DNA of 63,049 nucleotides from a virus (lineage: Duplodnaviria; Caudoviricetes). Location: positions 1-63,049 of the IMG/VR virus record IMGVR_UViG_3300027782_000082; one strand, 5' to 3'. Numbering within the stretch: the stretch's first letter is position 1; each line of letters opens with the position of its first letter. The translations under genes and the position numbers were made by a program. The notes below the pieces were generated by a model that was not told the origin of the DNA, searched no databases, and saw only the letters and a list, made by a program, of their open reading frames with translations. Positions 5,593 to 59,731 of the stretch are shown one piece after another.

Positions 5593-5624
5593 ATTTTTAC
5601 AACACATTGCGTAAATAGCCCGAA

Positions 5625-5694
5625 AGCTAAGTCATTGATTTTGCTAGGGTTTTTATCGTACCCTAGCTAAGTTGTTGATTTTGCTAGGGTTTTT
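5625..5694. repeat. Two 30-bp direct repeats at 40-bp spacing with an embedded inverted repeat
   Basis: agctaagtcattgattttgctagggttttt (5625-5654) and agctaagttgttgattttgctagggttttt (5665-5694); gctagggt/accctagc inverted repeat at 5643-5667. Confidence 0.9.
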
Positions 5695-5721
5695 TTCTGG
5701 GTTTTTCCTGGAAAAAAGTGG

Positions 5722-5750
5722 TTGACGCCCAACCCAGTTCAGTGCATAAT
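5722..5750 (+). promoter_or_regulatory. Sigma70-type early promoter
   Basis: TTGACG-N17-CATAAT preceded by GTGG. Confidence 0.75.
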
Positions 5751-5756
5751 ACGAGT

Positions 5757-5924
5757 ATGATGAAACAGAAGCTCACCATAACAGTCAACGCACCGCGCAA
5801 GCGCACCCGCGCCCATGCTGTGCTCTTTTTGGACTCACGCTATAAACAGCGCACGGTTAAGTCCGAGCGTCTTTATGACCGTAAGCGCCAAAAAGAGGTT
5901 GACCGTAAAGCGAGTCTGCTGTAA
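5757..5924 (+). CDS. Small basic protein, ArfA (alternative ribosome-rescue factor A)-like
   Basis: AVLFLDSRYKQRTVKSERLYDRKRQK resembles the ArfA core (ALLHDPLFRQRVEK...SYMRKGKH) but lacks KGKGS. Start moved to the ATG 6 nt after the -10 box. Confidence 0.45.
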   Translation: MMKQKLTITVNAPRKRTRAHAVLFLDSRYKQRTVKSERLYDRKRQKEVDRKASLL

Positions 5925-5927
5925 CAT
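5899..5927 (+). promoter_or_regulatory. Sigma70-type early promoter
   Basis: GAGG-TTGACC-N17-TAACAT. Confidence 0.55.
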
Positions 5928-5981
5928 CATAAATGGGTAGGGCATGTCGCACTACTCAAACACACAGAGAGGTAATTTACC

Positions 5982-6248
5982 ATGGCTTCCAAGTCACTCA
6001 AGACGTTCAAGTTCGTTGGCGTTTCTTTGCTCAATGGCAATGTTAAGGCCCGTTTCACGAACGATACTGCAACCCGCATCAAGGTGATGCAACGTGGTGG
6101 TCACACCAACATTGAGTTCACCGAACTCCCCCGCGAAATGACCAAGGCTGAGATTGAGAGCGAAGGTATGCTCCAGAAGGCTTTGGCTTCTTATAAGGGC
6201 GCCGCTCCTGCGGAGAAGCCTGCCAAGCCAGCGAAGGCTGTTGCTTAA
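5982..6248 (+). CDS. Hypothetical early protein
   Basis: GAGAGG RBS; 88 aa with an Ala/Lys/Pro tail. Confidence 0.85.
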   Translation: MASKSLKTFKFVGVSLLNGNVKARFTNDTATRIKVMQRGGHTNIEFTELPREMTKAEIESEGMLQKALASYKGAAPAEKPAKPAKAVA

Positions 6249-6257
6249 ATGCAACAC

Positions 6258-6310
6258 GTGTCAAGAGCTTGGTAACAGGCTCTTGACACAATGCCTACAT
6301 AGTGTATAAT
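6258..6310 (+). promoter_or_regulatory. Sigma70 promoter whose -35 box lies in a 14-bp inverted repeat
   Basis: gtgtcaagagcttg-GTAA-caggctcttgacac; TTGACA 6283-6288, TATAAT 6305-6310. Confidence 0.75.
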
Positions 6311-6344
6311 GTAGACATGTTCAACGCTAAGAGGAAAACTTAAA

Positions 6345-36700: not shown

Positions 36701-39700
36701 GATCAGCATGCCAAATCCTGGTACAATGTCTGCGCTTGTTTCTCTATGTTGATTTGCTGTGGCCCATGCTACTATCTTTTGATTGGTTCTATCAACATTG
36801 AGTGTGTTATCAAGTATGCCTGGAACAAGCCTAGGGCCTTCCCATACTGATTCCAAATACTCTGGGCCACCAGATAGCAATAGCCAATTTGCATAAGAGA
36901 ACGCAAACTCACTGCTTCTACGCCATGCAAGTTCCTGTGTGCCGATGTTGCCAAATGTCCAATCATCGATTGTTGCATCACTAGTAGTAATAGTGGTCTC
37001 GTCATACCAACCAGCCGCAACTGGATTGCGTAGCGTTCCGTCGGTATCTACTGGCAAGAAAGGTGCATCAGGTCCTGTCAGATATTCTATATCATGCTTG
37101 ATAGAACTGTTTGTATCAACATCTGGAAATGGCGTGTTGCTCCTATTGCCAATGGTCAATGCCGCAATCAATCTGACTCGTTTAACAGGATCAGTCCAGC
37201 TGTACATCGAATCCCAGTTGCTTGGCTTGCGAGCAAACCCCAGCATTTCCCAAGGATGTGTGTCTGGTCGGTCCGTGCCATACACATGTCGATATATGTC
37301 TCTCCAGCTGCCATAACGATTTCCATCAACAGCATCAAATACAGAATAGTTATATGTCAGTGGGCGGCCAATTATATGACCAAGGTTTGGTGTTTCCACA
37401 ATCTTGTGCTCGTTTGACCATGTTAGCCAAGCATCTTCAAGATAAGAGTTCAGTTCTGCTCTGTTATACCAAGTCTGACGCATCTTTCGAGGCTGGTGCT
37501 TGGCCAATAATATCTCTGCACGTTCGCCACGTGCTTTACCAATGCTACTGGCAACACGACGCTCAAATTCCAGCAACATGTCATCGCGGAAGTCACCCCA
37601 GGCTGGTGTCAAACTGCCATCGTGTCCTTGGATGAATAACACGTCTGGCCCTTGATATGTGGTATCAGTGTAGTACTCAGGATGATACCATGGTGTGATG
37701 CCCATCTTGGCAGGTGTTGGCGGTACATAACTCACACGTGTTTTCTTGAATACACAGATCTTGAACTGGCACGGAGTGTCAAACTCTGCAGAAATATGCA
37801 CAGTCTTTGCGGTCTGGTCAATGTCGTAATCTTTTGTGTATGTTAGTATGCGCCAGGCTGTGTCATTGTAATTCTTATAGTAAACGTACACATGATCTGT
37901 TGATATTTCGCCAAGCTCTGCTGTACTTGGTATCTCGCACTCATAATCCACAAAAGAAGCAGCCAGGCCGCCATTTAATATGATAATTGGTGGAGTAGGG
38001 TCGGCGTCTTCACCGTCAACAATATCAACCACTGTTGGATCTGTATCGTCACCATCAATCTCCAACTGCGCCGTGGAATCAGCAAAGGTGTAGATTTTTT
38101 CAGCGTCAGGTGTACCCCACATGACCATGTGGCTGTGTGCATATCTAAATGATTCGTTTCGTCCCACAAATATGTCTGACAATGCTTTGTCAACGGATGC
38201 CTGTACATTTGAAATATCTTGGTCCAGGTATAGTCTTTCAATTTTTTGTATGAACTTCAATTTGAAATTAGCATAGGCTTTTCTGGCATCTTCCAGCAAG
38301 GGAAATGCTGAACCTGTTTCGCCCGAGCGCATCATCCAGAAGTATCTATTGGCAGGGGAGTCATGCAATAGTATGTTGTTGCCCGGCGATGTTCTGGTTT
38401 CTGTAAACATCCAGTCGTTATCACCAAATGAATTGTTGTACCCTTCGGCTTCGGCAAATCTAGGATATTGCGAATTTGCATGGTAGGTATCTACAACAAA
38501 TCGCGGAATCAATGTCTTGGCGATTGACGAACGGAAATGTTCAAAGAACTGGCCGTAAGATCCTTTCGATACTATTTCATTGTATGGATTTTTAGACAAG
38601 TTTGAAATGTCAACATTGCGATTAACTGATGTCAGCATGCTGCCGTTAGTAACCACGTCAACAATATCTCCGGATGCAAGCCCAAGTACTTTTATGCCTA
38701 GCACAGGTGTGGTGTATGCATCTACACCGCCTTCATATGCTATTCTCCACTGGCTGGGGTCTTGTTCTTTGCCATTTACCAGCACACGTGGATGTCGGAT
38801 GTCATCACGACGCCTACCAACCACGCGAGCTATGTTATATCTTCCTTCTCCAATTCGCCATTTGATTATGTAATCTCCTGGGCGGCAGTCTTGTGGATCA
38901 TAAGATACTTTTTCATCAAACAAACTGGCAGGTAGTGGCACTTCAACATCAGTGGTATCAATGAACACAACTCCGCGCTGGTTTGCCACACGCAATCTAC
39001 GTCCTGTATAGTTAAAGATTTTACCATTTTTTATCTTTGAAACGATGATGTCATCATACCACTCTTGCGCCGGACGATCTGAATACACTTCTTCCACTAG
39101 GTAATCTTTGTAACCATCTGTGCTCAATGTCATTGGCATGGCGATGTTCCAGGTGTATGTTGGATCAAATACCCATTGTTCGCCGATCAATGACAAAGTG
39201 CCAGAGCTATCAATTATGTCATCTGTGACTGTGACCGAGTACTCTTTCTTGACAGAAAAACACTCGCTGATGGGTTCCCATCCAGCATTGTACTTCCAAA
39301 TTGGATCAATTACTTTGTCAATGTTCCATTCTCTAAAGTAACTGAAAGAACTGATATCTCTAAGAGCATTGACCGGTACGCCTTCACTTCTTTTGTAGAT
39401 CTCAGCAATGTAGTTGGTAAAAGATATTGCACCAATGTTGTTGGCCAGACTATTCTTGTAACTGCTATCATATGCAATCGACAGATTTAATTCTCGGTCG
39501 TATGTGGTTCCTTTGGTATAGCCAAATATTTGGCTACCGCTGAATGCCGCAACATCATACTGTTCAATCGGGGTTCCGTTACCATCAAACAATCTAAACA
39601 GTGGTGCTTGTCCCCTGACTTCTAGTTGCTGGGCTTTTACCCAAGATGTACCGTTATACCAATATGTCAGACCAAAATTTGGTCCATCTAATACCAATAC

Positions 39701-40963
39701 AGATGCACCTGTTACAGGCGCCGCGTCACTGGCAGGTATGAACTCAACTCCAAAGTCAACTCCGGTAGCAATGAATGTTTTATTCTTGATCGCTGGGTCG
39801 CCGCCAAGGAATATCACTCTTGCATTTTCTGGTACAGGTACTCCGTCAATTACCGGGTTCACTATGCCATTGAGGCCGTTCAATGAGCTAACACTATCAG
39901 TTAACAATGTCACATGCTTCTTGCCAAGGTGGCCGTGATTCCACATGTCTATGTCAGAATAAAACTCAACGATTGGCCTTGCGGCACGATCGTTGATGTT
40001 CAATACATCACCATCAGCGATGTCCAAGAACCTGGCTACTTCAAACGCAGTTTGCTCATGTATCCAGCGATTCGTACGACTCCATACATTGTAGTTGGCG
40101 CTACCCATTGCAATGGTAACATATTGCTTTCCGCCTGGTGTTAACACATCTGTGTCCCAGCGATTCCTGTCCCAATTCTTGTTGTCCCATGGTAGTGGCG
40201 CAAGTATGGAAATCAAGCTCAACGGATTTGCATATAGCTCAAATGGCAGTAGCTTGATACTTGATCCAACCCCAGACACGATATAATACTTTGGATCCGT
40301 GCTGTCGGATGGAATAGTTAGATACTCAGTTGACTCTTCCCATATTCCTAGATCTCTCTGTACGAAATATATTTTCATACCATTGCGCAATGTCAGCTTG
40401 CGGCCATTGGCTTGAGTGTTTGTGACATAGTAGGCTTTGCCTACTATATCTGTGCCGATGTTGACTATGTCCAGTTCGCCATCATCGTTGCGCCCTGCTT
40501 CTAGTGCAATGGTTGGTAGATCAAACGGAAGCCAATAATAGTTCTGGAAATTTACAAACTTGTCTGGATCAATCTTGGGGGAAAAACCATAGGTTTTTCC
40601 AGTGAGCTGTTTTGCATCCTTGAGAGGAATATTTTCTCTGACGGTGAGTTCTTCTCTGATGTCAACTATGTCACCTACCACTTCGCCAGCTGTAATTCCC
40701 ATCTCATAACGATTGCCGTTAGTTAGGTATATATCTGAGGCTCGTCGTAGTTTGCCATTAGCACTACCAATGTATCCATCAAACGATTCCAGCGTGCCTT
40801 TGCTGGTCAGGTCTCCCAACAAAGCATTGATATACTTTTTGTTACGAGTTGTCCTGTGTACACCTGGCAGTAGACCAGATACGTTTACAGTCGCTGGCGG
40901 CACCTTACTACTACCTGGATAGGTTTGATAAGACGTTGTTATCTTTTTATTTTTGCTAGCCAT
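30722..40963 (-). CDS. Giant (3413 aa) baseplate wedge-type structural protein
   Basis: Follows the gp6-like gene; FINEVKPYHTK; WD..PWD repeats; two CBM5/12-like W/Y....Y..G..V.Y.G..Y.A modules. Confidence 0.8.
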   Translation of the reverse strand: MASKNKKITTSYQTYPGSSKVPPATVNVSGLLPGVHRTTRNKKYINALLGDLTSKGTLESFDGYIGSANGKLRRASDIYLTNGNRYEMGITAGEVVGDIVDIREELTVRENIPLKDAKQLTGKTYGFSPKIDPDKFVNFQNYYWLPFDLPTIALEAGRNDDGELDIVNIGTDIVGKAYYVTNTQANGRKLTLRNGMKIYFVQRDLGIWEESTEYLTIPSDSTDPKYYIVSGVGSSIKLLPFELYANPLSLISILAPLPWDNKNWDRNRWDTDVLTPGGKQYVTIAMGSANYNVWSRTNRWIHEQTAFEVARFLDIADGDVLNINDRAARPIVEFYSDIDMWNHGHLGKKHVTLLTDSVSSLNGLNGIVNPVIDGVPVPENARVIFLGGDPAIKNKTFIATGVDFGVEFIPASDAAPVTGASVLVLDGPNFGLTYWYNGTSWVKAQQLEVRGQAPLFRLFDGNGTPIEQYDVAAFSGSQIFGYTKGTTYDRELNLSIAYDSSYKNSLANNIGAISFTNYIAEIYKRSEGVPVNALRDISSFSYFREWNIDKVIDPIWKYNAGWEPISECFSVKKEYSVTVTDDIIDSSGTLSLIGEQWVFDPTYTWNIAMPMTLSTDGYKDYLVEEVYSDRPAQEWYDDIIVSKIKNGKIFNYTGRRLRVANQRGVVFIDTTDVEVPLPASLFDEKVSYDPQDCRPGDYIIKWRIGEGRYNIARVVGRRRDDIRHPRVLVNGKEQDPSQWRIAYEGGVDAYTTPVLGIKVLGLASGDIVDVVTNGSMLTSVNRNVDISNLSKNPYNEIVSKGSYGQFFEHFRSSIAKTLIPRFVVDTYHANSQYPRFAEAEGYNNSFGDNDWMFTETRTSPGNNILLHDSPANRYFWMMRSGETGSAFPLLEDARKAYANFKLKFIQKIERLYLDQDISNVQASVDKALSDIFVGRNESFRYAHSHMVMWGTPDAEKIYTFADSTAQLEIDGDDTDPTVVDIVDGEDADPTPPIIILNGGLAASFVDYECEIPSTAELGEISTDHVYVYYKNYNDTAWRILTYTKDYDIDQTAKTVHISAEFDTPCQFKICVFKKTRVSYVPPTPAKMGITPWYHPEYYTDTTYQGPDVLFIQGHDGSLTPAWGDFRDDMLLEFERRVASSIGKARGERAEILLAKHQPRKMRQTWYNRAELNSYLEDAWLTWSNEHKIVETPNLGHIIGRPLTYNYSVFDAVDGNRYGSWRDIYRHVYGTDRPDTHPWEMLGFARKPSNWDSMYSWTDPVKRVRLIAALTIGNRSNTPFPDVDTNSSIKHDIEYLTGPDAPFLPVDTDGTLRNPVAAGWYDETTITTSDATIDDWTFGNIGTQELAWRRSSEFAFSYANWLLLSGGPEYLESVWEGPRLVPGILDNTLNVDRTNQKIVAWATANQHRETSADIVPGFGMLISELASSLSADVLQSIISEIRNVKSRLQWTANGFLDATSLDFVADILIEQEKGNRIPQEDYAISLKNTSPSVVLTYSGVKVIVDDAGGYRIQGFDNISTYFPYYAVKASGPSIPVEVGSITYKKYTTFETVISYLDYGTVLMTRQEVINFLLGYGHYLESQGWKFEDTAPTQDDILDWSYSAREFATWSQTRWQANTQIALSPAAQNLVLSHSTRFFGRLDTTFLSRTYLLDENSRRIDFKDTEVVREDEETTIKSRPGIGIYFVRCGLEEYTHAVVFNDTTIFNDQINDYLFGLIIPRLRAQGKRTTNWNGRPEGHGYLIGESGIGSNLDTISREIGDDYITVENRSSNPWIRNLKKSQLGLSRPEDALLAAGFSKDTIDQFQAGSLRRKGTPNIIDKFTKGILGDLSSSSLSVPPGITVRENWMFRMGDFGTTGEKSTWEIQIPADTRETLLDLITVRVIPPFRENTYYETYVDKAADNIIDLLGPNDSRWVKYPRDFELPIRSKSVRETDLPQAGIPDRIETDYKFMDVDQLYEIDIADDILGEMSAIESWSTKLPYDEGDRVRYKGQLYKANYSHLAKTTFDPADWLAIEELYLPSIWLANKTPESNDVKDWTVLQTMDKNLGIKELCAGTFDDPYHPLCEMLPGVKHNLSVGDWVLILSTEKKDVNGYYKVTTIRDTESFFIELKYNPLDFVVPEFPPGNTSADGKLFVVKHTHFYTVDEMNASILDPGYEWANGQMAYIDDRVNEPSAYTYKGNYSLFTNNDIPSDNRGLVFYDFNADNVLHQWQASGEENMPWLFAIGILLATFMKLDAGTLALTDTCPVSLAALNVTGPTVLPTDLPSITVAEALNGIIFRQFNDCAWVLAEKIYTSGTLAAAAINTMFADECIAFVAEVDSTTNGSATTLDLAKIAKKIWSYTDYQYLFAQDSWFFRGKIYANRNVLLDYNGTGMFALQNDTEDADGNPLVEYHMIGIKPFSSRELMMVAMGYASRLKRDSDAIALLDTVNSFGKRAGTFNHIPFIFDRALGDIVDHSRITNVEIVDYETNTVLATLNPYDPAAGVLPAYVDTFINWKEHDDPASYTNADLEDQEGYSVRPRFAWFDEHQGEVWWDLSAVRYYDYYQGRTREKAFQWGKQFPGSTVQIYEWVKSVIPPAQWVESARTGFLVDFESVTGTPYHKTVNGENKYFWCEREEKDKKGVLRTFYYFWVSGMDRTYSTRTNIQSVAQKSTSISSAQVYTRATAGIPLTSNKFNVTQIASVVGNPRVSGAMWFAGLQKNAILLSGVGKLLGKKGAVLRIETDGNSDSHDQWLLMKENDITSTVSDWLHIRMRDSIIGEDQSETIYDVSNYQIGTNYGRGAVVRYDGNYYRAFRDFLASDVAFEDGSFVAFASQPWQRLWDFRLVEADKISEIQGKSVPDYSRHKYNRYGNEIRPTQQSWLNDRIEAIRIFVNVANRELAKVNVTSIVGWNNRLSRVIATNDPSFSYDISTYWDYVDYADSSFDSNKIPVAVLTTGTELYNYSTAKVGDYVEVLLGEQQLKNVWEKSVDGWKLVFQENGTIHLSKKLFDLAKAQDLWDASPWDSLRWDAYPFVELFEIITALREDVFVDSAQVHYNVVFFALAKEVLRQNPSCHWIRKSSYVDVERVSTEPLAATAYFRKEYLRNDDNVLTDFINEVKPYHTKILNQTEVDQIKDNVEVSFEDSHTGKIVMRYGRHGDQTWQGYYIDGHPFGHLQEGWDRNPWDFDFTAEGLLPATGERVSRMKNYLWDMEQPGYEALIDTIIAGHSFGVQPEALQAIVDGNAFYQPEWDRWPEEMVALSPGESVEIRVINNASGRIVNNSTVAWRYHMDILGGTTVYRYNNAASTTVTATANETATEIQLDDASVLTRPDPVNGKPGVVWLARERVEFWEIDGNTIKRLVRGTLGTPVLPQTVGRRVYDGGQQNQVPTPSELKNWQNALYPQWNEETLTLLNSTTREAVFLKEGRGYFVPA

Positions 40964-40964: not shown

Positions 40965-43900
40965 TCAGTTGTTAACCCTGATGTTTGTTTCTGTAATCGA
41001 AGAAATAATTTCTATGTTATCTGCGGTAGCAACATGATAAAATATTTCATCTTCGTTTGGTGTGATCTGGAATAGGTTACCAAATCTTGCTGCTTCTACT
41101 GTTGGCACAATGACCACGCTGGCAATATTGCCCGACAACTGTTTATGTATGAATGCTGCCAACTCAGTATAATAAAATGTCTCACCAAATTCCCAATTAC
41201 TTGGAAGGAAGTACTCATCCATTGCTTTGAGTATGCGACTCTTTATTTCGTTATCACTGATCCTGGCGCCGGACATCTTTACCACTTTGAGAGTAGCACG
41301 ATATCTGCTGTCTGCCAGCTCACCGAATAAATTCAAGAACTTTCCTGAGTGATAAATGATTTCATCGCTCACGCTCTTGTGTGAATTTAATGTCAAGAAA
41401 CGCTGTATAAGATCATCGCTGGTTGGTTTTTCTGGCTCTGATGTTGGTGTGCCACCTGCATTGATCCACTCTCTATAGAGATTGTAGTAGCCTTCTAATA
41501 GAACATAAGTGTCTATCACGTTGGTAGGCGATGGATCAATGATCTGCTTGCGAGATGCCACATGGTGCCAATGGAATCGCAATCCAGATCTTCCAGTAAC
41601 AACACGGCTGACGGGATAAAGTGCAGGATCCACAGGCATTTCAAATCGCAGACCTCCTTCTTCTCTCCAGCCCAGGCTGATAGTTCGATTGCCCACAAGG
41701 TCCTCAAAAGCATAGGGATTTTCAGGCAAAAAGTCGGTGTCAACATCGGCCAATGTACATTGTACCTTTGTGGGATCAGTATAACCATCTTCGTAACGAT
41801 AATATCTGCTCAGTCTGAACAACTGTTCTTCTTCGAGATACTGTGTTGCATCGTTGGGTTTCTTGTTATTCAAATATTTGATAGTGTCGTTAGAGTTATC
41901 TGCCTTGGTACTGCCCAGTGTGTTCACAAAGTTTTCATTGTAAAAACGCACTTTCCTATCGCTGCCTGCGATAATAGAAGTCACACGTTGCTTGACTACA
42001 AACCTATCTCCTTCATAGGTAACATACATCAACCAGCTGGAGTCTAAGCCAAGTCCGGCAGTACTACCGGCATTTGCCAAACTAAAGTCATTTGTACTGA
42101 TGTTGTCAGCATTGATGATCCTGAAAGAATAATTTGTATAGTCGTATGCAATTCCAAAAGTCTGGAAGTTACCAAGCAATGATTTTAGCGTTTCTTTGAA
42201 TGCCGTTGTAAATGTTTTTACGTAAGCTGGAATTAGTCTACGTATGCTAGCACCGTCGCTTACCACTTTGTTCAATATAACAACACCTTCTCCGTTGGGC
42301 TTTAGTCCTGTGCTGATACCATATTCGTCCTGTACACCGAGACCGTTGCCGTAGATCCGTCCCAGCGGTACCCAGCGCAATCCATTCACAGGATCAGAGT
42401 CATCTTCTAACAGCATCACAGCACCTTGACGTATTTGTTTGTAGACTGGGTCAGCTGATGCACCACCGATCCTAATAATTGCATCCAGGTCAAGTCCAAA
42501 ACTATTGGTAAAGAACCCATGGCAATAATTTGTACCTCTGCCTACCCTGTTGAAATATGCTGGCTTGTTGGCAAAAGAAATATTTGGATAGTTCTTGTAG
42601 TAAAAGTTGATCAAGTCTTGGTCTGACAGCATTGCCTCAATGTCACTGATGATATCAATCACACGCTTGTTACCACGCGGATATGGATACTCATGGCGTA
42701 CTGCATTGTCTTCTCTATAGACAAAACCATCTGTGCCAAATACATCAAGATCATTGTAGGTTCCAGTTGGATCCTTGTCCTGGATGTATCTGCTCATGCC
42801 GCTGTGTATGCGGTTGATACTTTTGATCTTCAAGATTCCTGGACTGGCCGTCATTGGATAGCTAGCATAATCCTGCCCAGTTACCATACGGTCTTGTGCA
42901 TAGTAGTATGCTGGTGCTTTTGTGCGCACATCCTCAATGCTGTCAGCCATTTCAGCATTGGAAATTGTATAGTCGAGATCGCATGTTAGTGTCAGTGTAT
43001 GCGCTTGATTTGACTTGCTGATATAAGGTATACCAAATGTCAATGCTTTCATGGACGATGGTTTAATAGTATACGATAGTCCGTTACCAACTCTTACGAT
43101 AACTCTTATCAATCCGGTGGGTATGTTACCAAATTTACCGTCGGCAAATTTAATGCTGACAGCATCATTGTTTCCGGTCAGTACTTCGTATATGTTGCGC
43201 TCTTCATTGCCAAGATCATTGATATAGAGATTGCTACCATTGGTAGATGGCACACGCTGCCAATGTGCTAATACTTCTCCAGTGTCATTGATGCTCTGCA
43301 CCCAGATATCATTTTCAGTCACGTTGCTTGCTGGAATATCTATAACACGATTGATCAGAGGAGAATCGATGATGTAGTCGTAACGAGCAAGTGTTCCTTG
43401 CTTGAACATCATAAAGAAGCCAGTGTTTGGAGATAGATTACCTAGTCCGTCATTTTTATAGATGACGTTAAATGGTCCTGATTGTGTGGGCGTGTTTTCT
43501 TCGATGCTGCCGCCGTCAAGCAATCTAGCACATAGTAGTTCAAAGTCCATGGAGTTTCCTCCAACATTGGAATTGAATCCAATTGACGGAAAGTCAGCGA
43601 ATGTAGATGAAAATCCGTACTGTGCAATCTGTCCACCTGCTGATGTATACACAACTTCTGGTGTACCAAATTGCGTAGCAGAGTTGAGTGCTGTGTTCAT
43701 CACAATCACAAATTTTTCATATGCATCGGTATCTGTTGTGGCAGTCCAGTAAACCGTCTGACGTGCCAGATCATTGCCCAGGCTGTCTAGTACTGTTTCA
43801 CTTGTGCTTGCGCTTTTTATTTTTAGATAGCCAACTGCATTGCGACTGCGACGCGGCTGATAGCTCAACTGTCGTGCCAGTTTAAGGATGCTGTCACGAC

Positions 43901-44177
43901 GTTCTGCGGTGTCAAGAAATGCTTCGCGGCTGTTCAAATCATTGCGGAAGCTAAGGTTCTGTCCTACGAATGCGATCAAGTCAATCAGCGCAACAAACTC
44001 TGAGCTTTGGATATAGTCGTTGAAATCTTCTGGATAGTTGCGCTTGATGATATCCAGCATTGCTGTTCTAAGGGTGTCAAAATCGTAACTCTTAAATTCA
44101 GCATTGCGGAAACTCTGCGCAACGACCTTCCAGTCTTCCGCGGCAAAGAGTTTGCTTTGTCTGATTGCATCACTCAT
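40965..44177 (-). CDS. Baseplate wedge protein, T4 gp6-like
   Basis: YDFD.LR, F.DY..SS...LID..A, FLDTAERRDSI.KLA..L.Y.P, IKFADG.FG.IP and QDRMVT..DY. Confidence 0.88.
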   Translation of the reverse strand: MSDAIRQSKLFAAEDWKVVAQSFRNAEFKSYDFDTLRTAMLDIIKRNYPEDFNDYIQSSEFVALIDLIAFVGQNLSFRNDLNSREAFLDTAERRDSILKLARQLSYQPRRSRNAVGYLKIKSASTSETVLDSLGNDLARQTVYWTATTDTDAYEKFVIVMNTALNSATQFGTPEVVYTSAGGQIAQYGFSSTFADFPSIGFNSNVGGNSMDFELLCARLLDGGSIEENTPTQSGPFNVIYKNDGLGNLSPNTGFFMMFKQGTLARYDYIIDSPLINRVIDIPASNVTENDIWVQSINDTGEVLAHWQRVPSTNGSNLYINDLGNEERNIYEVLTGNNDAVSIKFADGKFGNIPTGLIRVIVRVGNGLSYTIKPSSMKALTFGIPYISKSNQAHTLTLTCDLDYTISNAEMADSIEDVRTKAPAYYYAQDRMVTGQDYASYPMTASPGILKIKSINRIHSGMSRYIQDKDPTGTYNDLDVFGTDGFVYREDNAVRHEYPYPRGNKRVIDIISDIEAMLSDQDLINFYYKNYPNISFANKPAYFNRVGRGTNYCHGFFTNSFGLDLDAIIRIGGASADPVYKQIRQGAVMLLEDDSDPVNGLRWVPLGRIYGNGLGVQDEYGISTGLKPNGEGVVILNKVVSDGASIRRLIPAYVKTFTTAFKETLKSLLGNFQTFGIAYDYTNYSFRIINADNISTNDFSLANAGSTAGLGLDSSWLMYVTYEGDRFVVKQRVTSIIAGSDRKVRFYNENFVNTLGSTKADNSNDTIKYLNNKKPNDATQYLEEEQLFRLSRYYRYEDGYTDPTKVQCTLADVDTDFLPENPYAFEDLVGNRTISLGWREEGGLRFEMPVDPALYPVSRVVTGRSGLRFHWHHVASRKQIIDPSPTNVIDTYVLLEGYYNLYREWINAGGTPTSEPEKPTSDDLIQRFLTLNSHKSVSDEIIYHSGKFLNLFGELADSRYRATLKVVKMSGARISDNEIKSRILKAMDEYFLPSNWEFGETFYYTELAAFIHKQLSGNIASVVIVPTVEAARFGNLFQITPNEDEIFYHVATADNIEIISSITETNIRVNN

Positions 44178-53154: not shown

Positions 53155-54066
53155 ATGACAACTTCACCCGCAAAAACAATATATCTATCAAACAAAGATC
53201 TTCTCAAAGAGATCCACCACAGCAAAATGACTTATTGCTGGGTCAAAAGTCCAGAATATTACTATTACGATTTGATCCTTGACGATCTTGCCAAGTTCCA
53301 TAATCGCAAAAATGTAGCCTTTCCTAAGGGAGCAATAACTACAGCGAGAGAGAATCGTGCCAGTAGGCAAGCGGCGCAAGCATTGGAAGTCGCAGACCGT
53401 GAATGGCGAGAAACAGGGCAAAAAGGATTGAAACCAAAGCTGGATCAGTTCTTGCCAGATCCCAAGAAAATACCAGTGGAAGAACTAGTGATACGCACAT
53501 CTTCTAGCTTTGACCATATTCCAGTTGAACCAGGGCGTAAAAACAAGCCCAAGATCACAGCAGACCTACACTCAAAAGTAAACTTTCCTCCATTCAAGCA
53601 TTGGGTCAAGATTGAAGATGAATGGGTCGAGGTAGCCCGTAGTCACTGGAAAGGCGATCTCAAGAAGGGACAATTTAGTGTCAGTCATGGCAAAGTAGTT
53701 GATAACCTTGCCAGAATGTACATTAAATTGTGTGAGCGTTACAGCATGCGATCAAATTGGCGAGGCTATACCTACGTTGAAGAAATGCGAGGGCAAGCAT
53801 TACTGCAACTCAGCCAGATTGGTTTGCAGTTTGACGAAAGCAAAAGCTCTAACCCATTCGCATACTATACCGCGGCCATAACCAACAGCTTCACCCGTGT
53901 GCTCAACATGGAAAAGAAGAATCAAAATATCCGAGACGATCTCTTGCAAGACGCAGGACAAATGCCCAGCTGGTCACGCCAGCTAGAATACCAAGCACAA
54001 CAAGTAGCCACAAGAGAGCGCAATGCTGCCTTGAGCGAAGGTGCCAAGGATGAGGAAGAAGTATAA
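53155..54066 (+). CDS. Late-transcription sigma factor, T4 gp55-like
   Basis: YLSNKDLL; NWRGYTY.EEM......FDESKSSNPFAYYT....NSF.R....EKK. Confidence 0.8.
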   Translation: MTTSPAKTIYLSNKDLLKEIHHSKMTYCWVKSPEYYYYDLILDDLAKFHNRKNVAFPKGAITTARENRASRQAAQALEVADREWRETGQKGLKPKLDQFLPDPKKIPVEELVIRTSSSFDHIPVEPGRKNKPKITADLHSKVNFPPFKHWVKIEDEWVEVARSHWKGDLKKGQFSVSHGKVVDNLARMYIKLCERYSMRSNWRGYTYVEEMRGQALLQLSQIGLQFDESKSSNPFAYYTAAITNSFTRVLNMEKKNQNIRDDLLQDAGQMPSWSRQLEYQAQQVATRERNAALSEGAKDEEEV

Positions 54067-54067
54067 T

Positions 54068-54484
54068 ATGGACATGCAACATTATAAAGACTTTGTTGAG
54101 CGTATCACTAGCCCGCAAAGCAATAACCTACATGATTTTATCAGCCGCTGTAGAGAACTTGAGGAACAGACCGCAGTTGAAGGCGCACCAGATCTCAATG
54201 TGCCGTTGTTTTTGACTGCGGCCATGGGCATTGGTAGCGAGGGCGGAGAGTTCCAGGAAATTGCCAAGAAGATCTTCTTCCAAGGCAAGCCTTTCACACA
54301 GGATGTTGTGTTCCATCTCAAACGTGAACTAGGTGATATCATGTGGTATTGGGTCAATGCGTGTCGCGCACTTGGTCTCAATCCTGACGAAGTCATCTAT
54401 GAAAACATCGCCAAGCTAGAATCACGATACGGCGATAGTTTTTCAGTTAACCGTAGCGAGATCCGAAAAGACGGCGATCTCTAA
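54068..54484 (+). CDS. MazG-like nucleotide pyrophosphohydrolase
   Basis: EGGEFQEI.KK, RELGDIMWY and N..KL..RY. Start moved to ATG 54068. Confidence 0.88.
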   Translation: MDMQHYKDFVERITSPQSNNLHDFISRCRELEEQTAVEGAPDLNVPLFLTAAMGIGSEGGEFQEIAKKIFFQGKPFTQDVVFHLKRELGDIMWYWVNACRALGLNPDEVIYENIAKLESRYGDSFSVNRSEIRKDGDL

Positions 54485-54501: not shown

Positions 54502-55524
54502 ATGGGTCAACTATTCAAGAAGGCAGCTTGCTTTACGGACATTCATTTTGGTATGCGTAGTAACAGTCGTACACACAACGACGATTGTGAATCGTTCATC
54601 AAGTGGTTTGTAAAGGAAGCACAAGCGGCTGGCGCTGAGACTTGTATTTTTCTTGGTGACTGGCATAACAATCGTTCAACAGTCAATGTGAGTACGCTGA
54701 ACTATACAGTGAGCAATCTAGAGTATCTCAGCAAGAGTTTTGACCGTGTGTTCTTTATCACTGGCAATCACGACTTGTTCTATAGAGAAAAGCGTGAGAT
54801 CCATAGCTTGCCATTTGGCAAGTACCTTACCAACATCACCATGGTCAATGAAGCCATAGTCGAAGGCGACGTTGCTATCGTTCCATGGCTTGTGGGTGAA
54901 GAATGGACCAACATGAAGAAGCTAGACAGCAGATATGTGTTTGGACATTTTGAGTTGCCCAGCTTCAAGATGAATGCCATGGTTGAAATGCCTGATCATG
55001 GCGGACTCAATGCAGGTCACTTTCCAAACCAAGAACTTGTGTTCTCAGGACATTTCCACAAGCGCCAACAGAAAGGCAATGTTGTGTACATGGGCAATCC
55101 ATTTCCGCATAACTTTGCTGATGCATGGGATGACGAACGTGGCATGATGCTGTTGGACTGGGGTGGCAAGCCAGAGTACAAGAGCTGGCCAGATGCACCC
55201 AAGTTCCGTGTGCTTACACTGGGTGGTGTGATTGAAGATCCAGGTCGGGTACTTGATAAAAACACATTTGCTCGTATCAGCATTGACATTGATATCAGCT
55301 ATGAAGAAGCACAGTTCCTTAAGAAAACATTCATGGAAGAATACGGTTGTAGGGATCTCACACTGATTCCTGCAAAGAAAGAAGAGCATGCCAAAGAATG
55401 GACTGCTGAGGATGTGAAATTTGAAAGCGTTGACCAAATCGTCATGACGCAATTGAATGCGATCGACTCAGATGTGATCGACAAGAAGATGTTGGTTGAC
55501 ATCTACAACGGTCTTACAGTATAA
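54502..55524 (+). CDS. Mre11/SbcD-like nuclease (T4 gp47-like)
   Basis: DIHFG, GDWH, GNHD, GHFE and SGHFH phosphoesterase motifs. Confidence 0.92.
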   Translation: MGQLFKKAACFTDIHFGMRSNSRTHNDDCESFIKWFVKEAQAAGAETCIFLGDWHNNRSTVNVSTLNYTVSNLEYLSKSFDRVFFITGNHDLFYREKREIHSLPFGKYLTNITMVNEAIVEGDVAIVPWLVGEEWTNMKKLDSRYVFGHFELPSFKMNAMVEMPDHGGLNAGHFPNQELVFSGHFHKRQQKGNVVYMGNPFPHNFADAWDDERGMMLLDWGGKPEYKSWPDAPKFRVLTLGGVIEDPGRVLDKNTFARISIDIDISYEEAQFLKKTFMEEYGCRDLTLIPAKKEEHAKEWTAEDVKFESVDQIVMTQLNAIDSDVIDKKMLVDIYNGLTV

Positions 55525-55537
55525 TGCAGGACAATCA

Positions 55538-57313
55538 ATGCTGACAATTAAAAATCTCACGGTAAAGAACTTCCTGTCTGTTGGTAATGTTACCCAAGCG
55601 GTAAACCTTGACCAACATGGCCTCACCTTGGTCATTGGTCTTAACATGGACATGGGTGGCGAAGGCGCACGTAACGGTGTGGGTAAGACCACTATCGTCA
55701 ATGCACTCAGCTATGCATTGTATGGCAATGCACTCAGCAACATCCGTAAGGACAATCTTATCAACAAGACCAATGATAAGAACATGTTGGTCACAGTGGA
55801 GTTTGAAAAGAATGGCCACAACTATCGTATTGAACGTGGCCGCAAGCCCAACATATTTCGTTTCGCAGTTGATGATGACGAAGTAAACGAAGCCGGCACC
55901 AACGAAGGACAGGGCGAAAACAAACTTACCCAGGAAGCAGTAGAACGCATCCTGGGCATGAGCCACGAGATGTTCAAACATATCCTGGCACTGAATACCT
56001 ACAATGAACCTTTCCTAAGCATGAAGAACAATGATCAGAAAGAGATCATTGAAGAGCTACTGGGTATCACACTACTCAGTGAAAAAGCAGAGCTTCTTAA
56101 AGAAGCAATGAAAAACACACGCGATGGTATCAAGGAAGAAGAATTCCGTATCAGGGCTTTGCAAGAAACCAATGCCAAGATACAGAGTTCTATTGAGGAC
56201 ATTGAACGTCGTAGTCGCATCTGGGTCAAGAAGAAAGATGATGACATGGTCAAGTTGGTTGCTTCAATCAACGAACTTGAAACCATTGACATTAACCAAG
56301 AGCTTGCAAACCATTCAGCACTGACTGCATGGAAAGAAAAAGAACAAAAGATCAAGCGTTATACCAAGGACCTGGCAAATGCACAGGCAGCAGTAAAGCG
56401 ACTGAGTGGACAGTTGGTAGAGTTGACCGGTGCATGTGACAAAGCAAAAGATCACAAGTGCCATGCTTGTGGACAGGGCTTGCATGATGACCAACAGTCA
56501 TCCATGATATCTGAGCTGGAATCTGCTATGATGAGTGTGGCAGACGATCTAGAGCGCGAGCATGCACTAGAGCAAGAGGCCAAAGCAAAAATTGAAGAAT
56601 CTGGCAGTTTGGGTACAGCACCACGTGTTCGGTATACCGACATAAATGATGCTGTGAACCACAAGAGTAGCTTGGAAAATCTAAAGTCGCAGTTGGTACA
56701 GCGTGATGCAGATAAGGATCCATATCAGGATCAAATTGAAACATTGCGCAACAAAGCACTAGCGGAAGTTGACTGGAACCCAATAAACACTCTTAACAAG
56801 AAGCTTGAACATCAAGAGTTCTTGTATAAGTTGCTCACTAACAAGGACTCATTTGTGCGACGTCGCATCATTGAGCAGAACTTGAGCTATTTGAATCACA
56901 GGTTGAATCACTATCTTACATTGCTACAGCTACCACATGAAGTCAATTTCCAAAGCGACCTTACTGTTGGTATCAAGATGCTGGGACAAGAATTTGACTT
57001 TGACAATCTCAGCCGTGGCGAACGCAACAGGCTCATCTTAGGATTGAGCTGGAGTTTCCGAGACGTGTTTGAGAGTTTGAATTTTCCTTGTAATTTGCTG
57101 TTCATTGACGAGCTTGTAGATTCAGGTATGGATCCAGTAGGTGTAGACGCCGCACTGGCCGTGCTCAAGAAGTTCAGCAGAGAATCAAAGAAGAATGTTT
57201 TCTTGATATCTCATAGAGATGAATTGATAACACGTGTAAACAACAGTTTGCAAGTTGTCAAAGAAAACGGATTTACCACGTTCTCGACGGATGTGGATAT
57301 GATGGAGGCATGA
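55538..57313 (+). CDS. Rad50/SbcC-like ATPase (T4 gp46-like)
   Basis: KNFLS.G, NGVGKT, CHAC zinc hook, LSRGE, LFIDE and ISH. Start moved to ATG 55538. Confidence 0.92.
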   Translation: MLTIKNLTVKNFLSVGNVTQAVNLDQHGLTLVIGLNMDMGGEGARNGVGKTTIVNALSYALYGNALSNIRKDNLINKTNDKNMLVTVEFEKNGHNYRIERGRKPNIFRFAVDDDEVNEAGTNEGQGENKLTQEAVERILGMSHEMFKHILALNTYNEPFLSMKNNDQKEIIEELLGITLLSEKAELLKEAMKNTRDGIKEEEFRIRALQETNAKIQSSIEDIERRSRIWVKKKDDDMVKLVASINELETIDINQELANHSALTAWKEKEQKIKRYTKDLANAQAAVKRLSGQLVELTGACDKAKDHKCHACGQGLHDDQQSSMISELESAMMSVADDLEREHALEQEAKAKIEESGSLGTAPRVRYTDINDAVNHKSSLENLKSQLVQRDADKDPYQDQIETLRNKALAEVDWNPINTLNKKLEHQEFLYKLLTNKDSFVRRRIIEQNLSYLNHRLNHYLTLLQLPHEVNFQSDLTVGIKMLGQEFDFDNLSRGERNRLILGLSWSFRDVFESLNFPCNLLFIDELVDSGMDPVGVDAALAVLKKFSRESKKNVFLISHRDELITRVNNSLQVVKENGFTTFSTDVDMMEA

Positions 57314-57522
57314 AAATGACCGAACAAACAAAAAGCAATCACGACATTATTGCAGAAGCATTTCAAACGTATCTTGATGAGAACGCAAAGTTCACTGGCA
57401 AAGGCGTCAAGGCGGCTGCAAGTCGCGCACGTAAGGCACTAGGTGACATTCGCAAGGCAGCTGGTGAGCGCCGTAAAGAAATCATGGTAGAGAAAACTGC
57501 TATGACCGAGAAGAAGGCCTGA
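57310..57522 (+). CDS. Small basic Hc1/histone-H1-like protein
   Basis: KF..KGVKAAASRARKAL..I.K....RRKEI. Confidence 0.65.
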   Translation: MKMTEQTKSNHDIIAEAFQTYLDENAKFTGKGVKAAASRARKALGDIRKAAGERRKEIMVEKTAMTEKKA

Positions 57523-57554
57523 TAAACAGGTTCATAGCATAAATCAAAGTACAC

Positions 57555-58073
57555 ATGGCGTCGAAAAGCAAAAACAAAGGTAAGTCCTGGGAAAGAGATG
57601 TTGCAAATTTCTTGTCCGAACTGTATGGAGCGTCGTTCATACGTGTTCCATCTAGCGGTGCATACGTGGGCGGCAAAAATGCTGTTCGCAAAGAGTTCTT
57701 GCACGAAGGACAGATACGCTCAATGAAGGGCGACATCACTCCACCAGGTGAATGGAAGCACCTCAACATAGAATGCAAAAGCTATGCTGAGTTTCCATTC
57801 CACCAGCTTTTCACGTCAGGTAAGATAACACTCTTAGACAACTGGATAGATCAGACCATTGAAGCTGCCGATGAAAACGACCTTAACATCGTTATCATGA
57901 AGTTCAACAGAAAAGGCAGCTTCATTGCGTTTGAGTACAAGCACTTTCCTACATTTACAACACATAGGCATGTCCGTTACGACAGCGTAAAACACGGACC
58001 ATGGGCATTTACAGGCTTTGACGACTTTTGGCAATTGAACAAAGACGCAGTTAAAACCCTTTCTATCCCTTAA
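57555..58073 (+). CDS. PD-(D/E)xK nuclease, Holliday-junction-resolvase-like
   Basis: KGKSWER.VA, R.P.SGA, GDI and IECK. Confidence 0.8.
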   Translation: MASKSKNKGKSWERDVANFLSELYGASFIRVPSSGAYVGGKNAVRKEFLHEGQIRSMKGDITPPGEWKHLNIECKSYAEFPFHQLFTSGKITLLDNWIDQTIEAADENDLNIVIMKFNRKGSFIAFEYKHFPTFTTHRHVRYDSVKHGPWAFTGFDDFWQLNKDAVKTLSIP

Positions 58074-58077
58074 AACT

Positions 58078-58630
58078 CCCCACAGGCTCATCTCTACCGA
58101 TAGGCTGCGCAACGGCCGCATAACTAGTTGCCCTAGACCTGGACACACGTATCGCAGGGACGGAAATTGTGCGCGGTAGCACAGACTCAGCACCACTATC
58201 CTTTACAGGACGTAAGTCAAACGGTATGAAACTGGCTTGGTGTGAGAATAGCAAAACCGAAATGAGCAAGCTCTATTGACAATTATAACTTGCGTGATCC
58301 CAGGACGATTCTATCGGGTGTCTTGGGTTAGTCAGCGTCATTAAAAGAAGATAGACGTAAAAAGGTACAGCATGACCGCCTTTGCCCTCTGGGTTGTTTC
58401 TGATAGATGTGGTATGGTACTCTGGAGAAAGTCCTTAGTCCAGCTTTTCACTTTGCCCTTAACAGGGCGAAGTGTGGCTGGAACCTCAGAGAAAATATCA
58501 TCTTGTTTCACTAGTAAACAAAATAACTTAGAATCTAAAAAGTAAAAATGATTCATGAACATATCACGAGCGATAGCGATGTGAATGTGAAATGAAGGCT
58601 GCGACAGCAGCCAGGTGTTAGAGGATACTT
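58078..58630 (+). ncRNA. Candidate large structured non-coding RNA (boundaries approximate)
   Basis: About 580-nt gap between convergent genes containing at least ten stems, with G-U pairs favouring the + strand. Confidence 0.6.
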
Positions 58631-58652
58631 GAAATATAAGGCAAGTTCTGAC

Positions 58653-58859
58653 TTACATCATCTGTTGTGTTTTTGTCTTAACACCAGCTAGCTTCATGTC
58701 TAGTTCGACTTTGTCCTTGACTACTTCTGCTAGGACTTGCCTTTCTTCCAGGCTCATATTGATCACTTCGTTGTAGCTTAGGCCACTATAAACCGCTAGC
58801 TGTTGCACGTCTTTGATCAGGCCCCTGGCTTCAATTCTATACTCATCAACGTATTTCAT
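58653..58859 (-). CDS. gp51-like / tail-assembly chaperone C-terminal part, probably reached by -1 frameshift
   Basis: GLSYNE..NMS.EER pattern; frame stays open upstream to the slippery site. Confidence 0.75.
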   Translation of the reverse strand: MKYVDEYRIEARGLIKDVQQLAVYSGLSYNEVINMSLEERQVLAEVVKDKVELDMKLAGVKTKTQQMM

Positions 58860-58861
58860 TA

Positions 58862-58904
58862 CCTGAGCGTTGTCTGTGGTGCTCAGGAGCCTTGAGCGAA
58901 AAAA
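58862..58904 (-). promoter_or_regulatory. Programmed -1 ribosomal frameshift signal
   Basis: T-TTT-TTC at 58904-58898; CCTGAGC/GCTCAGG hairpin 10 nt downstream. Confidence 0.7.
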
Positions 58905-59731
58905 CTTACTGGGTCCAGGGTAAAGTCAACTTCAAACCTACGACCACATCCTTCTTGTCCACAGATGACTTCTACACGAGTTTCAGCACCGCTCTGATTG
59001 ACTTCTCTTATCTTGTTTTCAATCTTCTTGAATTCACCGGTTTCAAGTTGTGATAGCCATTCGCTAATAGCTCCACGGTCGGTAATTTCTTGACCGTCAG
59101 GAGTAACAACTGCATCAATAACTTTTGATATGATTTCTTGTGCAAGTTCAATGTTACGACCAGTTACTTCATTACTGACACGTAACTTCAATCCTTCGTC
59201 TTCTGAATCCATGACTGCCTGTAGCTTGCGAACATTTTCAAATTGCACCATACCCAGTTTGTTTTGATCTGAAAGAGTGCTAGGACTTAACCGTATAGTA
59301 AGTTCATTGCTCAGTACTACTTCGTTTACTGGAGCAATACCCTTGATTTTTATCAAGAGATTATCTACGCTAATACCGTATGTGCCTGACCAATCACCGC
59401 ATGGACATGTGGTGCTGATATCCATCTTTTCTCCGTATGTGGCCTTGCGTATGGCAAGCAATATAGCGTCTACGTCTGGGTTTGGCATTTCGCTTGGGTT
59501 AGAAATGTCTGGAACACAGCTCTTTATCAACTGTATGATAGCATCGCCATTGAGCAATGAGTCAGCATTTTTAACCAGCAGTTCATCTTTTGCAGTCATT
59601 GGAAATACTGCAATTTCTCCGTCAACTGTTACCTTGGGCGGTGTCTTGTAAAACTTTCCTCCGCTGGGTAATGTTACATTGAGTCCTGGCTTTCTAAAAT
59701 ACTGGCCTAACGGGTTGTTAGCTTGTGTCAT
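58883..59731 (-). CDS. Baseplate hub assembly protein (T4 gp26-like) / tail assembly chaperone
   Basis: LPSGG.FY, PMTAKDE, D.DAILLAIR..TYG, CPC and C....C. Confidence 0.82.
   Translation of the reverse strand: MTQANNPLGQYFRKPGLNVTLPSGGKFYKTPPKVTVDGEIAVFPMTAKDELLVKNADSLLNGDAIIQLIKSCVPDISNPSEMPNPDVDAILLAIRKATYGEKMDISTTCPCGDWSGTYGISVDNLLIKIKGIAPVNEVVLSNELTIRLSPSTLSDQNKLGMVQFENVRKLQAVMDSEDEGLKLRVSNEVTGRNIELAQEIISKVIDAVVTPDGQEITDRGAISEWLSQLETGEFKKIENKIREVNQSGAETRVEVICGQEGCGRRFEVDFTLDPVSFFAQGS

Follow-up and report, generated by a model that had tools for sequence, protein, structure and literature searches.

A predicted large pseudoknotted RNA of uncultured freshwater T4-like phages with Polynucleobacter-1 as its 5' domain

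Introduction

What does a tightly packed phage genome keep in a stretch that is dense in hairpins and devoid of long open reading frames (ORFs)? The question is raised by a gap of about 550 nt (58078-58630) in the IMG/VR virus record IMGVR_UViG_3300027782_000082. The whole stretch of DNA that was analysed, hereafter the window, is this record of 63,049 bases, the completeness of which is estimated at 18% by CheckV. The genes around the gap are of the T4-like myovirus type (Pfam, PHROGs) and the genome is that of an uncultured freshwater T4-like phage. The gap lies between two convergent gene blocks that stop at 58073 (a nuclease gene) and at 58653 (a 68-aa ORF). An initial annotation, made from the letters of the sequence, had proposed that its + strand codes for a structured RNA that is both large and ornate, possibly a partner of the nuclease or a transcript of a replication origin.

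Here, we find that 58084-58613 of the + strand is almost certainly a conserved, multiply pseudoknotted RNA, as judged from the comparison of its homologues. Its extent, about 530 nt, is predicted at both ends from sequence conservation. The 5' part of this RNA is a motif that has been catalogued as Polynucleobacter-1; the larger 3' part matches nothing in Rfam and contains two short boxes that are kept identical to each other within an RNA while they differ between phages.

Results

Polynucleobacter-1 matches the 5' part of the gap

Positions 58104-58244 (+) match the Rfam model RF01718, Polynucleobacter-1, over its entire length (model 1-141 of 141, 87.4 bits for a gathering score of 37, E = 3.1e-17), and this is the sole match of Rfam release 15 in the whole window. 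The helices of the model are upheld by compensatory changes among relatives of the window RNA (helices 2-10, between 71.7 and 99.6% paired, most pairs having changed on both sides). By score and helices alike, the window RNA is thus a member of RF01718. A permissive search of 57900-58900, with E up to 10, added only a chance-level match to L17DE (17 bits, E = 3.1) and returned none to ROOL, GOLLD, HEARO, group I/II introns, RNase P or tmRNA; ARAGORN detected no tRNA or tmRNA in the window. The initial annotation had suggested exactly this list for comparison and had named a strong Rfam match as the result that would remove the novelty of the locus. This is what happened to the 5' 141 nt, whereas the remaining ~370 nt on the 3' side match no Rfam family and keep their novelty.

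Weinberg et al. 2010 (Genome Biol 11:R31) was the sole paper naming the motif in our literature search. Its table lists Polynucleobacter-1 as a likely RNA with a likely cis-regulatory role, leaves the question of a switch open and gives Burkholderiales and fresh water or estuary as sources (PMC2864571). No description of a longer RNA came out of the literature searches; the supplements of that paper (drawings and gene contexts), which may bear on this point, lay outside them.

One 3' core is combined with different 5' domains

A first set of relatives consisted of 80 contigs encoding relatives of the window nuclease. RF01718 stood directly behind the nuclease gene in 13 of the 20 contigs that were scanned, and an alignment of eight such gaps revealed conserved blocks and covarying hairpins that continue for ~370 nt past the Rfam model. 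An iterated nhmmer profile matched 31 of 81 sources. An 18-nt pattern taken from the most conserved block (the pseudoknot core) gave at least 120 further contigs; 109 of 120 were, among the matches listed, confirmed as homologues by the profile. The iterated profile finally produced at least 140 matches over 201 sources, all of them IMG/VR phage contigs, and it is from these matches that the counts of neighbours, boxes and family members below are drawn. In the window, the profile matches 58084-58630 and no second copy of the RNA was found. Neither this region nor a typical relative had a blastn match among 50,697 GenBank phage records. Some large phage genomes contain a further copy of the RNA or a diverged one, namely G003 (the record of L135; ~165.7 kb and 276.0 kb) and G005 (272.5 kb and 353.2 kb).

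The 5' ends of these matches fall into two classes. Seventy-nine of the at least 140 start at the 5' end of the profile and thus include the Polynucleobacter-1 domain, while 61 start at profile positions 80-251. In 32 of the late-starting loci, the 110-140 nt (up to 227) that separate the upstream gene from the core are not what a truncation would leave but a different conserved 5' domain, and RF01718 was matched in none of 16 loci of this kind. The family may therefore be described, on these alignments, as sharing its 3' core while the 5' domain differs, and the window is of the Polynucleobacter-1 type. Compared with this RNA, RF01718 is alike over its whole 141 positions, in strand, in helices and in its freshwater phage-type context; however, it covers only about a quarter of the conserved RNA, lacks both the leader strand of a pseudoknot (PK0, below) and the ~370-nt 3' core, and represents the very part that related RNAs swap while they keep the core.

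The alternative 5' domain is an object in its own right: it is ~110-140 nt long, has its own co-changing hairpins (examples are L172:5354-5470, L106:4160-4277 and L154:4391-4532) and is detected by no Rfam model.

Covariation supports a multiply pseudoknotted structure

The + strand of the gap folds at -168.5 kcal/mol, compared with -152.6 +/- 6.4 for shuffled sequences (z = -2.48, 0 of 100 shuffles as low), and the - strand folds less well (z = -1.65, 6 of 100 as low). The ORFs of the gap are all short (35-73 aa), and the three that were tested had no match in Pfam or PHROGs. The hairpin-dense, non-coding stretch of the initial annotation is hence real, and its folding on the + strand exceeds background. 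Alone, this signal is modest, so that the decision falls to the comparative evidence.

A global RNAalifold on a rough alignment of 10 RNAs was uninformative and was replaced by mutual information with average-product correction, computed on the match columns of a sequence-only nhmmer alignment of 108 representatives (<90% identity). The top canonical signals fall into stacked helices. Together with the Rfam helices they gave a structure of 98 pairs in 20 helices, which was then scored on an independent, unfitted MAFFT alignment of 55 full-length RNAs including that of the window. In this alignment 88.3% of the cells are paired, against 73.5% after shuffling (0 of 500 shuffles attain the observed value) and 37.6-41.3% after sliding by 1-3 columns, and the covariation score is 0.452 against 0.187 and 0.07-0.10, respectively, with the caveat that the structure was derived from the same family as the one counted and that the slid controls are partly favourable by construction. 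Changes on both sides are found for 80 of the 98 pairs, which answers favourably the covariation check that the initial annotation had proposed. Many of the covarying pairs switch through G-U (columns 24/37 are G-U in 15 RNAs, columns 284/304 in 25), which supports an RNA on the + strand, as had been argued from the G-U pairs of the window itself.

From 5' to 3' (Table 1), the first pseudoknot, PK0 (helix 1), ties the leader to a loop inside the Rfam model, its leader strand being outside the model, which starts at 58104; all 4 of its 4 pairs have changed on both sides and it is 88.4% paired. The loop of hairpin Pb provides one strand of PK2 (helix 12; 7 of 7 pairs changed on both sides, 94.9% paired). 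The core pseudoknot PK1 (helices 13 and 15) is 98.9% and 99.6% paired, with double changes at 3 pairs of its stem S1. It bears the most conserved letters of the family, a near-invariant GGUA..G...ACCGCC, and the top mutual-information pair of the whole RNA. Large RNAs with several pseudoknots and invariant loop letters are rare, and the classes with a known function are ribozymes, riboswitches and scaffolds of ribonucleoproteins. Further downstream, hairpin Ph (helix 17) is 92.5% paired with double changes at 5 pairs and is followed by a conserved GUGUG, and the inner GC/GC pairs of the GNRA unit (helix 19) are 99.1% paired, with double changes at 2 of 2. The terminal hairpin Pt is probably the 3' end of the RNA. 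Two helices are weak on the MAFFT alignment, namely helix 16 at the base of Ph (45% paired) and helix 18, which closes the GNRA unit (47%). Both lie where the length of the RNA varies; judged by eye, their strands change together, but neither helix was counted as supported.

Most of the stems read from the window alone turn out to be covarying helices of the family (58103-58117, 58168-58183, 58199-58210, 58214-58238, 58299-58327, 58361-58383, 58449-58474 and 58597-58612). Others are present in the window but have less standing in the family: gcaag/cttgc (58266-58293) and ttgttt/aaacaa (58503-58521) lie in lineage-variable parts; tccagct/ggctgga has only the poorly paired helix 16 as its family counterpart; and ctctg/cagag can pair, but its strands belong to boxes A and B. 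A long-range pairing between 58192-58200 and 58402-58413 does not stand, because its UAUC/GAUA half is standard in just 2-5% of the 108 representatives and its other half has no covariation; in the family, 58400-58406 covaries with another partner, the loop 58311-58317, to form PK2.

Two boxes are kept identical to each other

The strongest non-canonical mutual-information links join columns that are 56 apart (315/371, 319/375, 321/377, 310/366 and 309/365), with z up to 15 and essentially no standard pairs. These columns belong to two boxes, A and B, that flank hairpin Ph and are each preceded by (G)UGAC and six variable letters. The 7-mer core of box A equals that of box B in 88 of 102 representatives and differs from it at one position in 4 more, while box B shuffled among sequences gave a mean of 10.9 identical cores and a maximum of 23 in 1000 trials. 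There are 25 different cores, in which the three main variable positions are seen in all combinations, and column 315 has changed 25 times or more on a tree from which the box columns had been left out. The two ~12-nt boxes co-vary as identical direct repeats, not as base pairs; this is a new observation, and we know of no described RNA motif with such a signature.

Two pairings were considered and rejected as explanations. An antiparallel pairing of box A with box B (RGAU/AUCU) is standard in 89-97% of the RNAs, but rare variants break these 4 bp and yet keep the boxes identical, so that pairing does not explain identity; the columns that partner the boxes in standard pairing are invariant. 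A conserved U-rich stretch near column 150 could pair with the boxes in 17 of 88 cases with G-U allowed. It was rejected as a partner because it can pair with any purine-rich box and does so without covariation.

It might also be asked if identity has any function at all. Homogenisation at the DNA level, by slipped mispairing of short direct repeats around the hairpin spacer, would produce identical boxes as a by-product; that the variable positions are mostly A/G transitions flipping often on the tree, column 315 above all, and that no box partner was found (see Discussion) would both be accounted for. However, differences between the boxes that are fixed in the family (ACUC versus AUCU and a final G versus A) are retained in ~99 of 102 RNAs, and homogenisation should erase them. 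In addition, conversion that leaves no deletion would be hard to expect of repeats as short as ~12 nt. We find this explanation barely credible.

Table 1. Elements of the predicted RNA, in 5' to 3' order, followed by the genes around it.
Feature	Position	Strand	Remarks
Whole RNA, from the AGGCUC motif to the terminal hairpin (predicted extent)	58084-58613	+	nhmmer profile, covariation, one contig end at 58613
Conserved 5' motif AGGCUC	58084-58089	+	
PK0	ACCG 58096-58099 with CGGU 58174-58177	+	second strand in the loop of hairpin 58167-58183; 4/4 pairs in the window
5' domain, RF01718	58104-58244	+	helices 2-10
Small pseudoknot	58103-06 with 58114-17	+	across P1 (58109-13 with 58127-31)
Hairpin Pa, GCAAG/CUUGC	58266-58293	+	5/5 pairs; lineage-variable, relatives hold a different hairpin there
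Hairpin Pb, CCCAGGAC/GUCUUGGG	58299-58327	+	8/8 pairs in the window; helix 11, 9/9 changed on both sides
PK2	CUAUCGG 58311-58317 with CUGAUAG 58400-58406	+	7/7 pairs in the window; mutual information
Core pseudoknot PK1	58337-58383	+	S1 GUCAU 58337-41/AUGAC 58372-76; S2 AAAGGU 58361-66/GCCUUU 58378-83
Box A, CUCUGGAGAAAG	58420-58431	+	family form NN-ACUC-NNNNN-AUG
Hairpin Ph	58449-58/58465-74	+	10/10 pairs in the window; base stem UCCAGC/GCUGGA 58439-44/58477-82, 6/6 pairs
Box B, CUCAGAGAAAAU	58485-58496	+	family form NN-AUCU-NNNNN-AUA
A/U-rich linker, variable length	58497-58562	+	lineage-specific hairpin 58503-08/58516-21, 6/6 pairs; gappy in alignments
Short closing stem of the GNRA unit	58563-58585	+	around near-invariant GA-GC-(GNRA loop)-GC-GA(A/U), 58568-58580
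Terminal hairpin Pt, GGCUGC-GACA-GCAGCC	58597-58612	+	helix 20, 8/8 pairs with double changes, 94.3% paired
Late sigma factor	53155-54066	+	
MazG-like	54041-54484	+	
SbcD-like	54502-55524	+	
SbcC-like	55496-57313	+	
70-aa Hc1 histone-like protein	57310-57522	+	Pfam PF07432, E = 6e-9
172-aa PD-(D/E)xK nuclease	57555-58073	+	Pfam PDDEXK_15, E = 9.7e-28; PHROGs phrog_244 'RusA-like Holliday junction resolvase'
68-aa ORF, convergent, downstream neighbour of the RNA	58653-58859	-	
T4 baseplate-hub-like	58883-59731	-	

The upstream nuclease is a frequent neighbour of the RNA

The RNA sits at the 3' end of a replication-recombination gene block (SbcD, SbcC, Hc1-like, nuclease), and a gene order of this kind invites a reading as a nuclease with its guide RNA, which calls for caution. 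Among 128 distinct copies, the upstream ORF is on the same strand in 106 and on the opposite strand in 7, the remaining 15 being at a contig edge. A Pfam scan covered 105 of these 113 upstream ORFs, 8 near-duplicates having been dropped: 63 are GIY-YIG nucleases of the SegE type (~142 aa), 21 are PDDEXK_15, 1 is an RNase H, 4 belong to other families and 16 to none. Small nucleases thus make up 84 of the 105, and the initial annotation was right that the RNA adjoins a PD-(D/E)xK nuclease gene.

It had gone one step further and suggested that the RNA is a partner of that nuclease. As a guide, scaffold or decoy, the RNA would serve a small enzyme made of a catalytic domain only. Small nucleases are 69 of the 88 upstream ORFs even in contigs found through the RNA pattern alone (GIY-YIG 63, PDDEXK_15 6, and one RNase H besides), the stop of the nuclease gene lies 10-30 nt ahead of the RNA, and the two look-alike modules of the RNA could suit a dimeric enzyme. 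However, two unrelated folds, GIY-YIG and PD-(D/E)xK, occupy the slot, and each occurs with both types of 5' domain. The nuclease and the RNA also come apart: in G004 and G005 (372 kb, complete and with terminal repeats), the next ORF after the PD-(D/E)xK gene is on the opposite strand. The full-length RNA, at a distance of at least ~220 kb, comes after a 301-aa ORF that matches DUF5591 and precedes small ORFs on the same strand. Moreover, 50 of 80 nuclease loci had no RNA match with the first profile, from which divergent forms may have escaped, and no complement of the boxes is enriched in three large phage records. Nor do the neighbours resemble the effectors of omega RNA (IscB or TnpB) or bridge RNA (IS110): Pfam scans of the flanks found no RuvC, HNH or IS110-type protein, the neighbours being PDDEXK_15 or GIY-YIG catalytic domains. 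There was also no HEARO match in 57900-58900, and no enriched target of the boxes in those three records. A partnership with the nuclease is therefore very unlikely in our view. The adjacency would rather reflect a conserved gene order at the end of a block, where a slot for a junction nuclease has been refilled, than an RNA-protein system.

Transcription and the possibility of a cis-acting element

Twenty-four sequencing runs hold the stretch or part of it and 6 of these are recorded as metatranscriptomes; four, from four studies, were compared (shares <0.3 were not used). Contigs of these four lake metatranscriptome runs cover 57303-58613. Some extend from the nuclease gene well into the RNA (57303-58412 and 57303-58378), and one stops at 58613, the base after the terminal hairpin. 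No contig of the four runs extends over 58614-58740, a coverage gap that is not evidence of absence. In two runs, variants occur at 58300 and 58303 in the 5' arm of Pb, and both, as we read them, keep its pairing (C-G to U-G and G-U to A-U). In this phage, the RNA probably shares a transcript with the nuclease gene, one that would stop at the terminal hairpin. A terminator scan called Pt (58612-58597) on the - strand only, the + strand being without a T-run; in relatives, the 3' arm of Pt ends in CUU(U), and the hairpin may serve both convergent units. Elsewhere in the family the RNA can be a transcription unit of its own, since in L111 a perfect sigma-70 promoter (12 of 12, TTGACA-17-TATAAT, 2790-2818 on the - strand) stands directly before it; a hairpin upstream of this promoter (2837-2855) is terminator-like on the opposite (+) strand.

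Could the RNA then be a cis-acting element of an mRNA, either a leader or riboswitch for the downstream gene or a structured 3' untranslated region (UTR) that ends and protects the transcript of the nuclease operon? The former was put forward for Polynucleobacter-1 in 2010, when a cis-regulatory role was listed as likely and the switch question left open (PMC2864571), and the invariant letters of the pseudoknots would suit a ligand pocket. The latter accords with the contigs that join the nuclease gene and the RNA and with a terminal hairpin that is terminator-like at least for the opposite strand. The downstream ORF is on the same strand in 40 of the 128 distinct copies; it is, however, convergent in 75, the window included, with 13 copies ending at a contig edge, so that the proposed position in a 5'-UTR is absent from the window and misfits most of the family. 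The same-strand downstream ORFs of relatives are mutually unrelated and belong to no Pfam family. Likewise, ~530 nt with three or more pseudoknots far exceed what the protector of a 3' end needs, and the L111 RNA has its own promoter. A cis-acting element is, on balance, a rather improbable description of this RNA.

Other features of the window

The initial annotation had called the gap the largest ORF-free one of the genome. This has to be corrected: 5356-6344 (989 nt without an ORF of >=90 aa) is longer, though it apparently holds small genes. This second ORF-poor stretch has a very low folding energy (z = -6.55, 20 shuffles). A ~35-nt unit that ends in a hairpin and a U-run occurs in it as two tandem copies. 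A long hairpin without mismatches lies around 6270-6300, and the spans 5718-5924 and 5982-6248 are plausible as small ORFs for basic proteins. It matches no Rfam family and has no similarity to the 58084-58613 RNA.

Among the genes, the Hc1-like one (57310-57522) is wedged between the SbcC-like and nuclease genes, and a tblastn search with its product matched the same position in a subset of related contigs. The 68-aa ORF (58653-58859, -) comes 23 nt after the baseplate-hub-like gene (58883-59731, -). The window also contains two very large adjacent ORFs, 30722-40963 (-, 3413 aa) and 40965-44177 (-, 1070 aa).

Discussion

We propose that what the gap encodes, some 530 nt read from the + strand, is the Polynucleobacter-1 RNA of aquatic T4-like phages at its full length. 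The catalogued 141-nt motif would form its 5' part, tied to the leader by an extra pseudoknot, and would be followed by a 3' core, hitherto undescribed, made of two further pseudoknots, a hairpin flanked by tandem look-alike modules, an A/U-rich linker, a GNRA mini-hairpin and a terminal hairpin. Because the next gene is convergent in most copies and the nuclease is separable, the RNA would not be a switch in a 5'-UTR, nor would it be tied to the nuclease as an obligate partner. It would instead act as a free-standing, trans-acting folded RNA, a proposal to which we give an even chance. Its invariant pseudoknot core would be the binding site of a conserved partner. The boxes, which are identical within an RNA and different between phages, would each pair with one of two copies of a nucleic-acid sequence specific to the phage, and this bivalent pairing is put forward as a tentative and rather doubtful idea. 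A full-length Polynucleobacter-1 RNA that works as a free-standing trans-acting RNA is the best explanation of the data as a whole, although we hold its chances to be no more than balanced.

Several results weigh against this explanation, besides the bias of the structure count noted above. (i), the RNA-library data are assembled contigs, which indicate presence only, and carry-over of DNA is possible. (ii), no promoter-like site was seen just before the window RNA, and such sites are no commoner around it than in shuffles; as contigs bridge the nuclease gene and the RNA, the latter may, in this phage, simply be a long structured 3' UTR. (iii), on the tree, box B follows box A in 5 and does the opposite in 0 of 6 supported independent pairs, and the resulting p = 0.06, obtained on well-supported branches, is the limit for so few pairs. 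(iv), in the divergent lineage to which the window belongs, identity of the boxes is limited to CUC.GAGAAA, and a pairing between them (ctctg/cagag) is possible as well. (v), within the loci, reverse complements of the box cores gave scattered matches with no common position. In three large phage records, an 11-nt degenerate complement of the boxes was no more frequent than a reversed-pattern control once the boxes themselves, including a further box pair in G003, were set aside (2 extra sites in G001 compared with 4 for the control).

If the RNA is a machine, it is tempting to speculate that it is a large phage riboregulator, or a ribozyme-like device, of a new kind in which the boxes serve as a bivalent specificity element, but we regard this as improbable in so precise a form. 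The boxes would then join two identical sites, or pair with the DNA of their own gene to form an R-loop, and the whole would be coupled to the replication-recombination machinery; these particulars are every bit as speculative.

The origin transcript considered in the initial annotation deserves separate attention. ColE1 RNA II is a pre-primer RNA of an origin that stays on its template; an RNA of this type, or one acting as in the R-loop origins of T4, would be a folded transcript that remains annealed and primes DNA synthesis. Annealing of box A RNA to box B template DNA would enforce the identity of the boxes and would require no separate gene for a box partner, none of which was found. The genomic setting is suitable too: the RNA lies at a transcription strand switch beside SbcCD and a junction-nuclease gene, an A/U-rich linker comes after box B, and one of the 105 upstream ORFs is an RNase H. 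According to the account of T4 origins in PMC3016281, active origins are found close to strand switches, 12-nt direct repeats are part of oriE, and oriF and oriG work through transcript R-loops that have an A+T-rich unwinding element. Direct repeats (as in oriE), a transcript of ~0.5 kb, nearby replication-recombination genes, a strand switch and an A/U-rich stretch are shared by these systems and the window. However, according to the same account, no specific sequence is required for an R-loop to form at oriF (PMC3016281), whereas the window RNA is under strong structural selection over its whole length: four covarying pseudoknots and invariant loop letters exceed what such an origin needs. 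Conserved covarying hairpins (helices 19 and 20) continue past the boxes and the linker, and some genomes have more than one copy of the RNA. We judge an origin of this type to be unlikely.

The RNA may also be compared with other large RNAs of bacteria and phages. ROOL, GOLLD, HEARO, OLE and raiA are likewise large, phage-associated RNAs with many pseudoknots and without an assigned function, but the resemblance is one of kind only: there is no homology in sequence or architecture, and none of them matched 57900-58900 at E up to 10. The manA motif (RF01745) is an RNA motif of marine metagenomes and T4-like cyanophages (PMC2864571) and, like the present family, a large orphan RNA of T4-like phages. 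The box B module of L105 can be aligned with the beginning of the manA model, and in each of them GUGAC-UGAA-AA-CU comes after a hairpin. At most, the two families may share a sub-module and not membership; in the window, manA had no match in 57900-58900 at E up to 10. In L105, 10408-10565 gives a full-length manA alignment that is below threshold (18.6 bits for a cut-off of 55.2, E ~0.01).

These results change the way in which Polynucleobacter-1 should be viewed. The motif, which has been in Rfam since 2010 with 141 nt, is on this evidence the 5' domain of an RNA that is nearly four times larger, and both the Rfam model and the annotation as a 5'-UTR element need revision. The RNA is widespread, being present in more than 100 contigs of uncultured freshwater T4-like phages, and its oddest feature, the two boxes that are kept identical, provides a handle for experiments.

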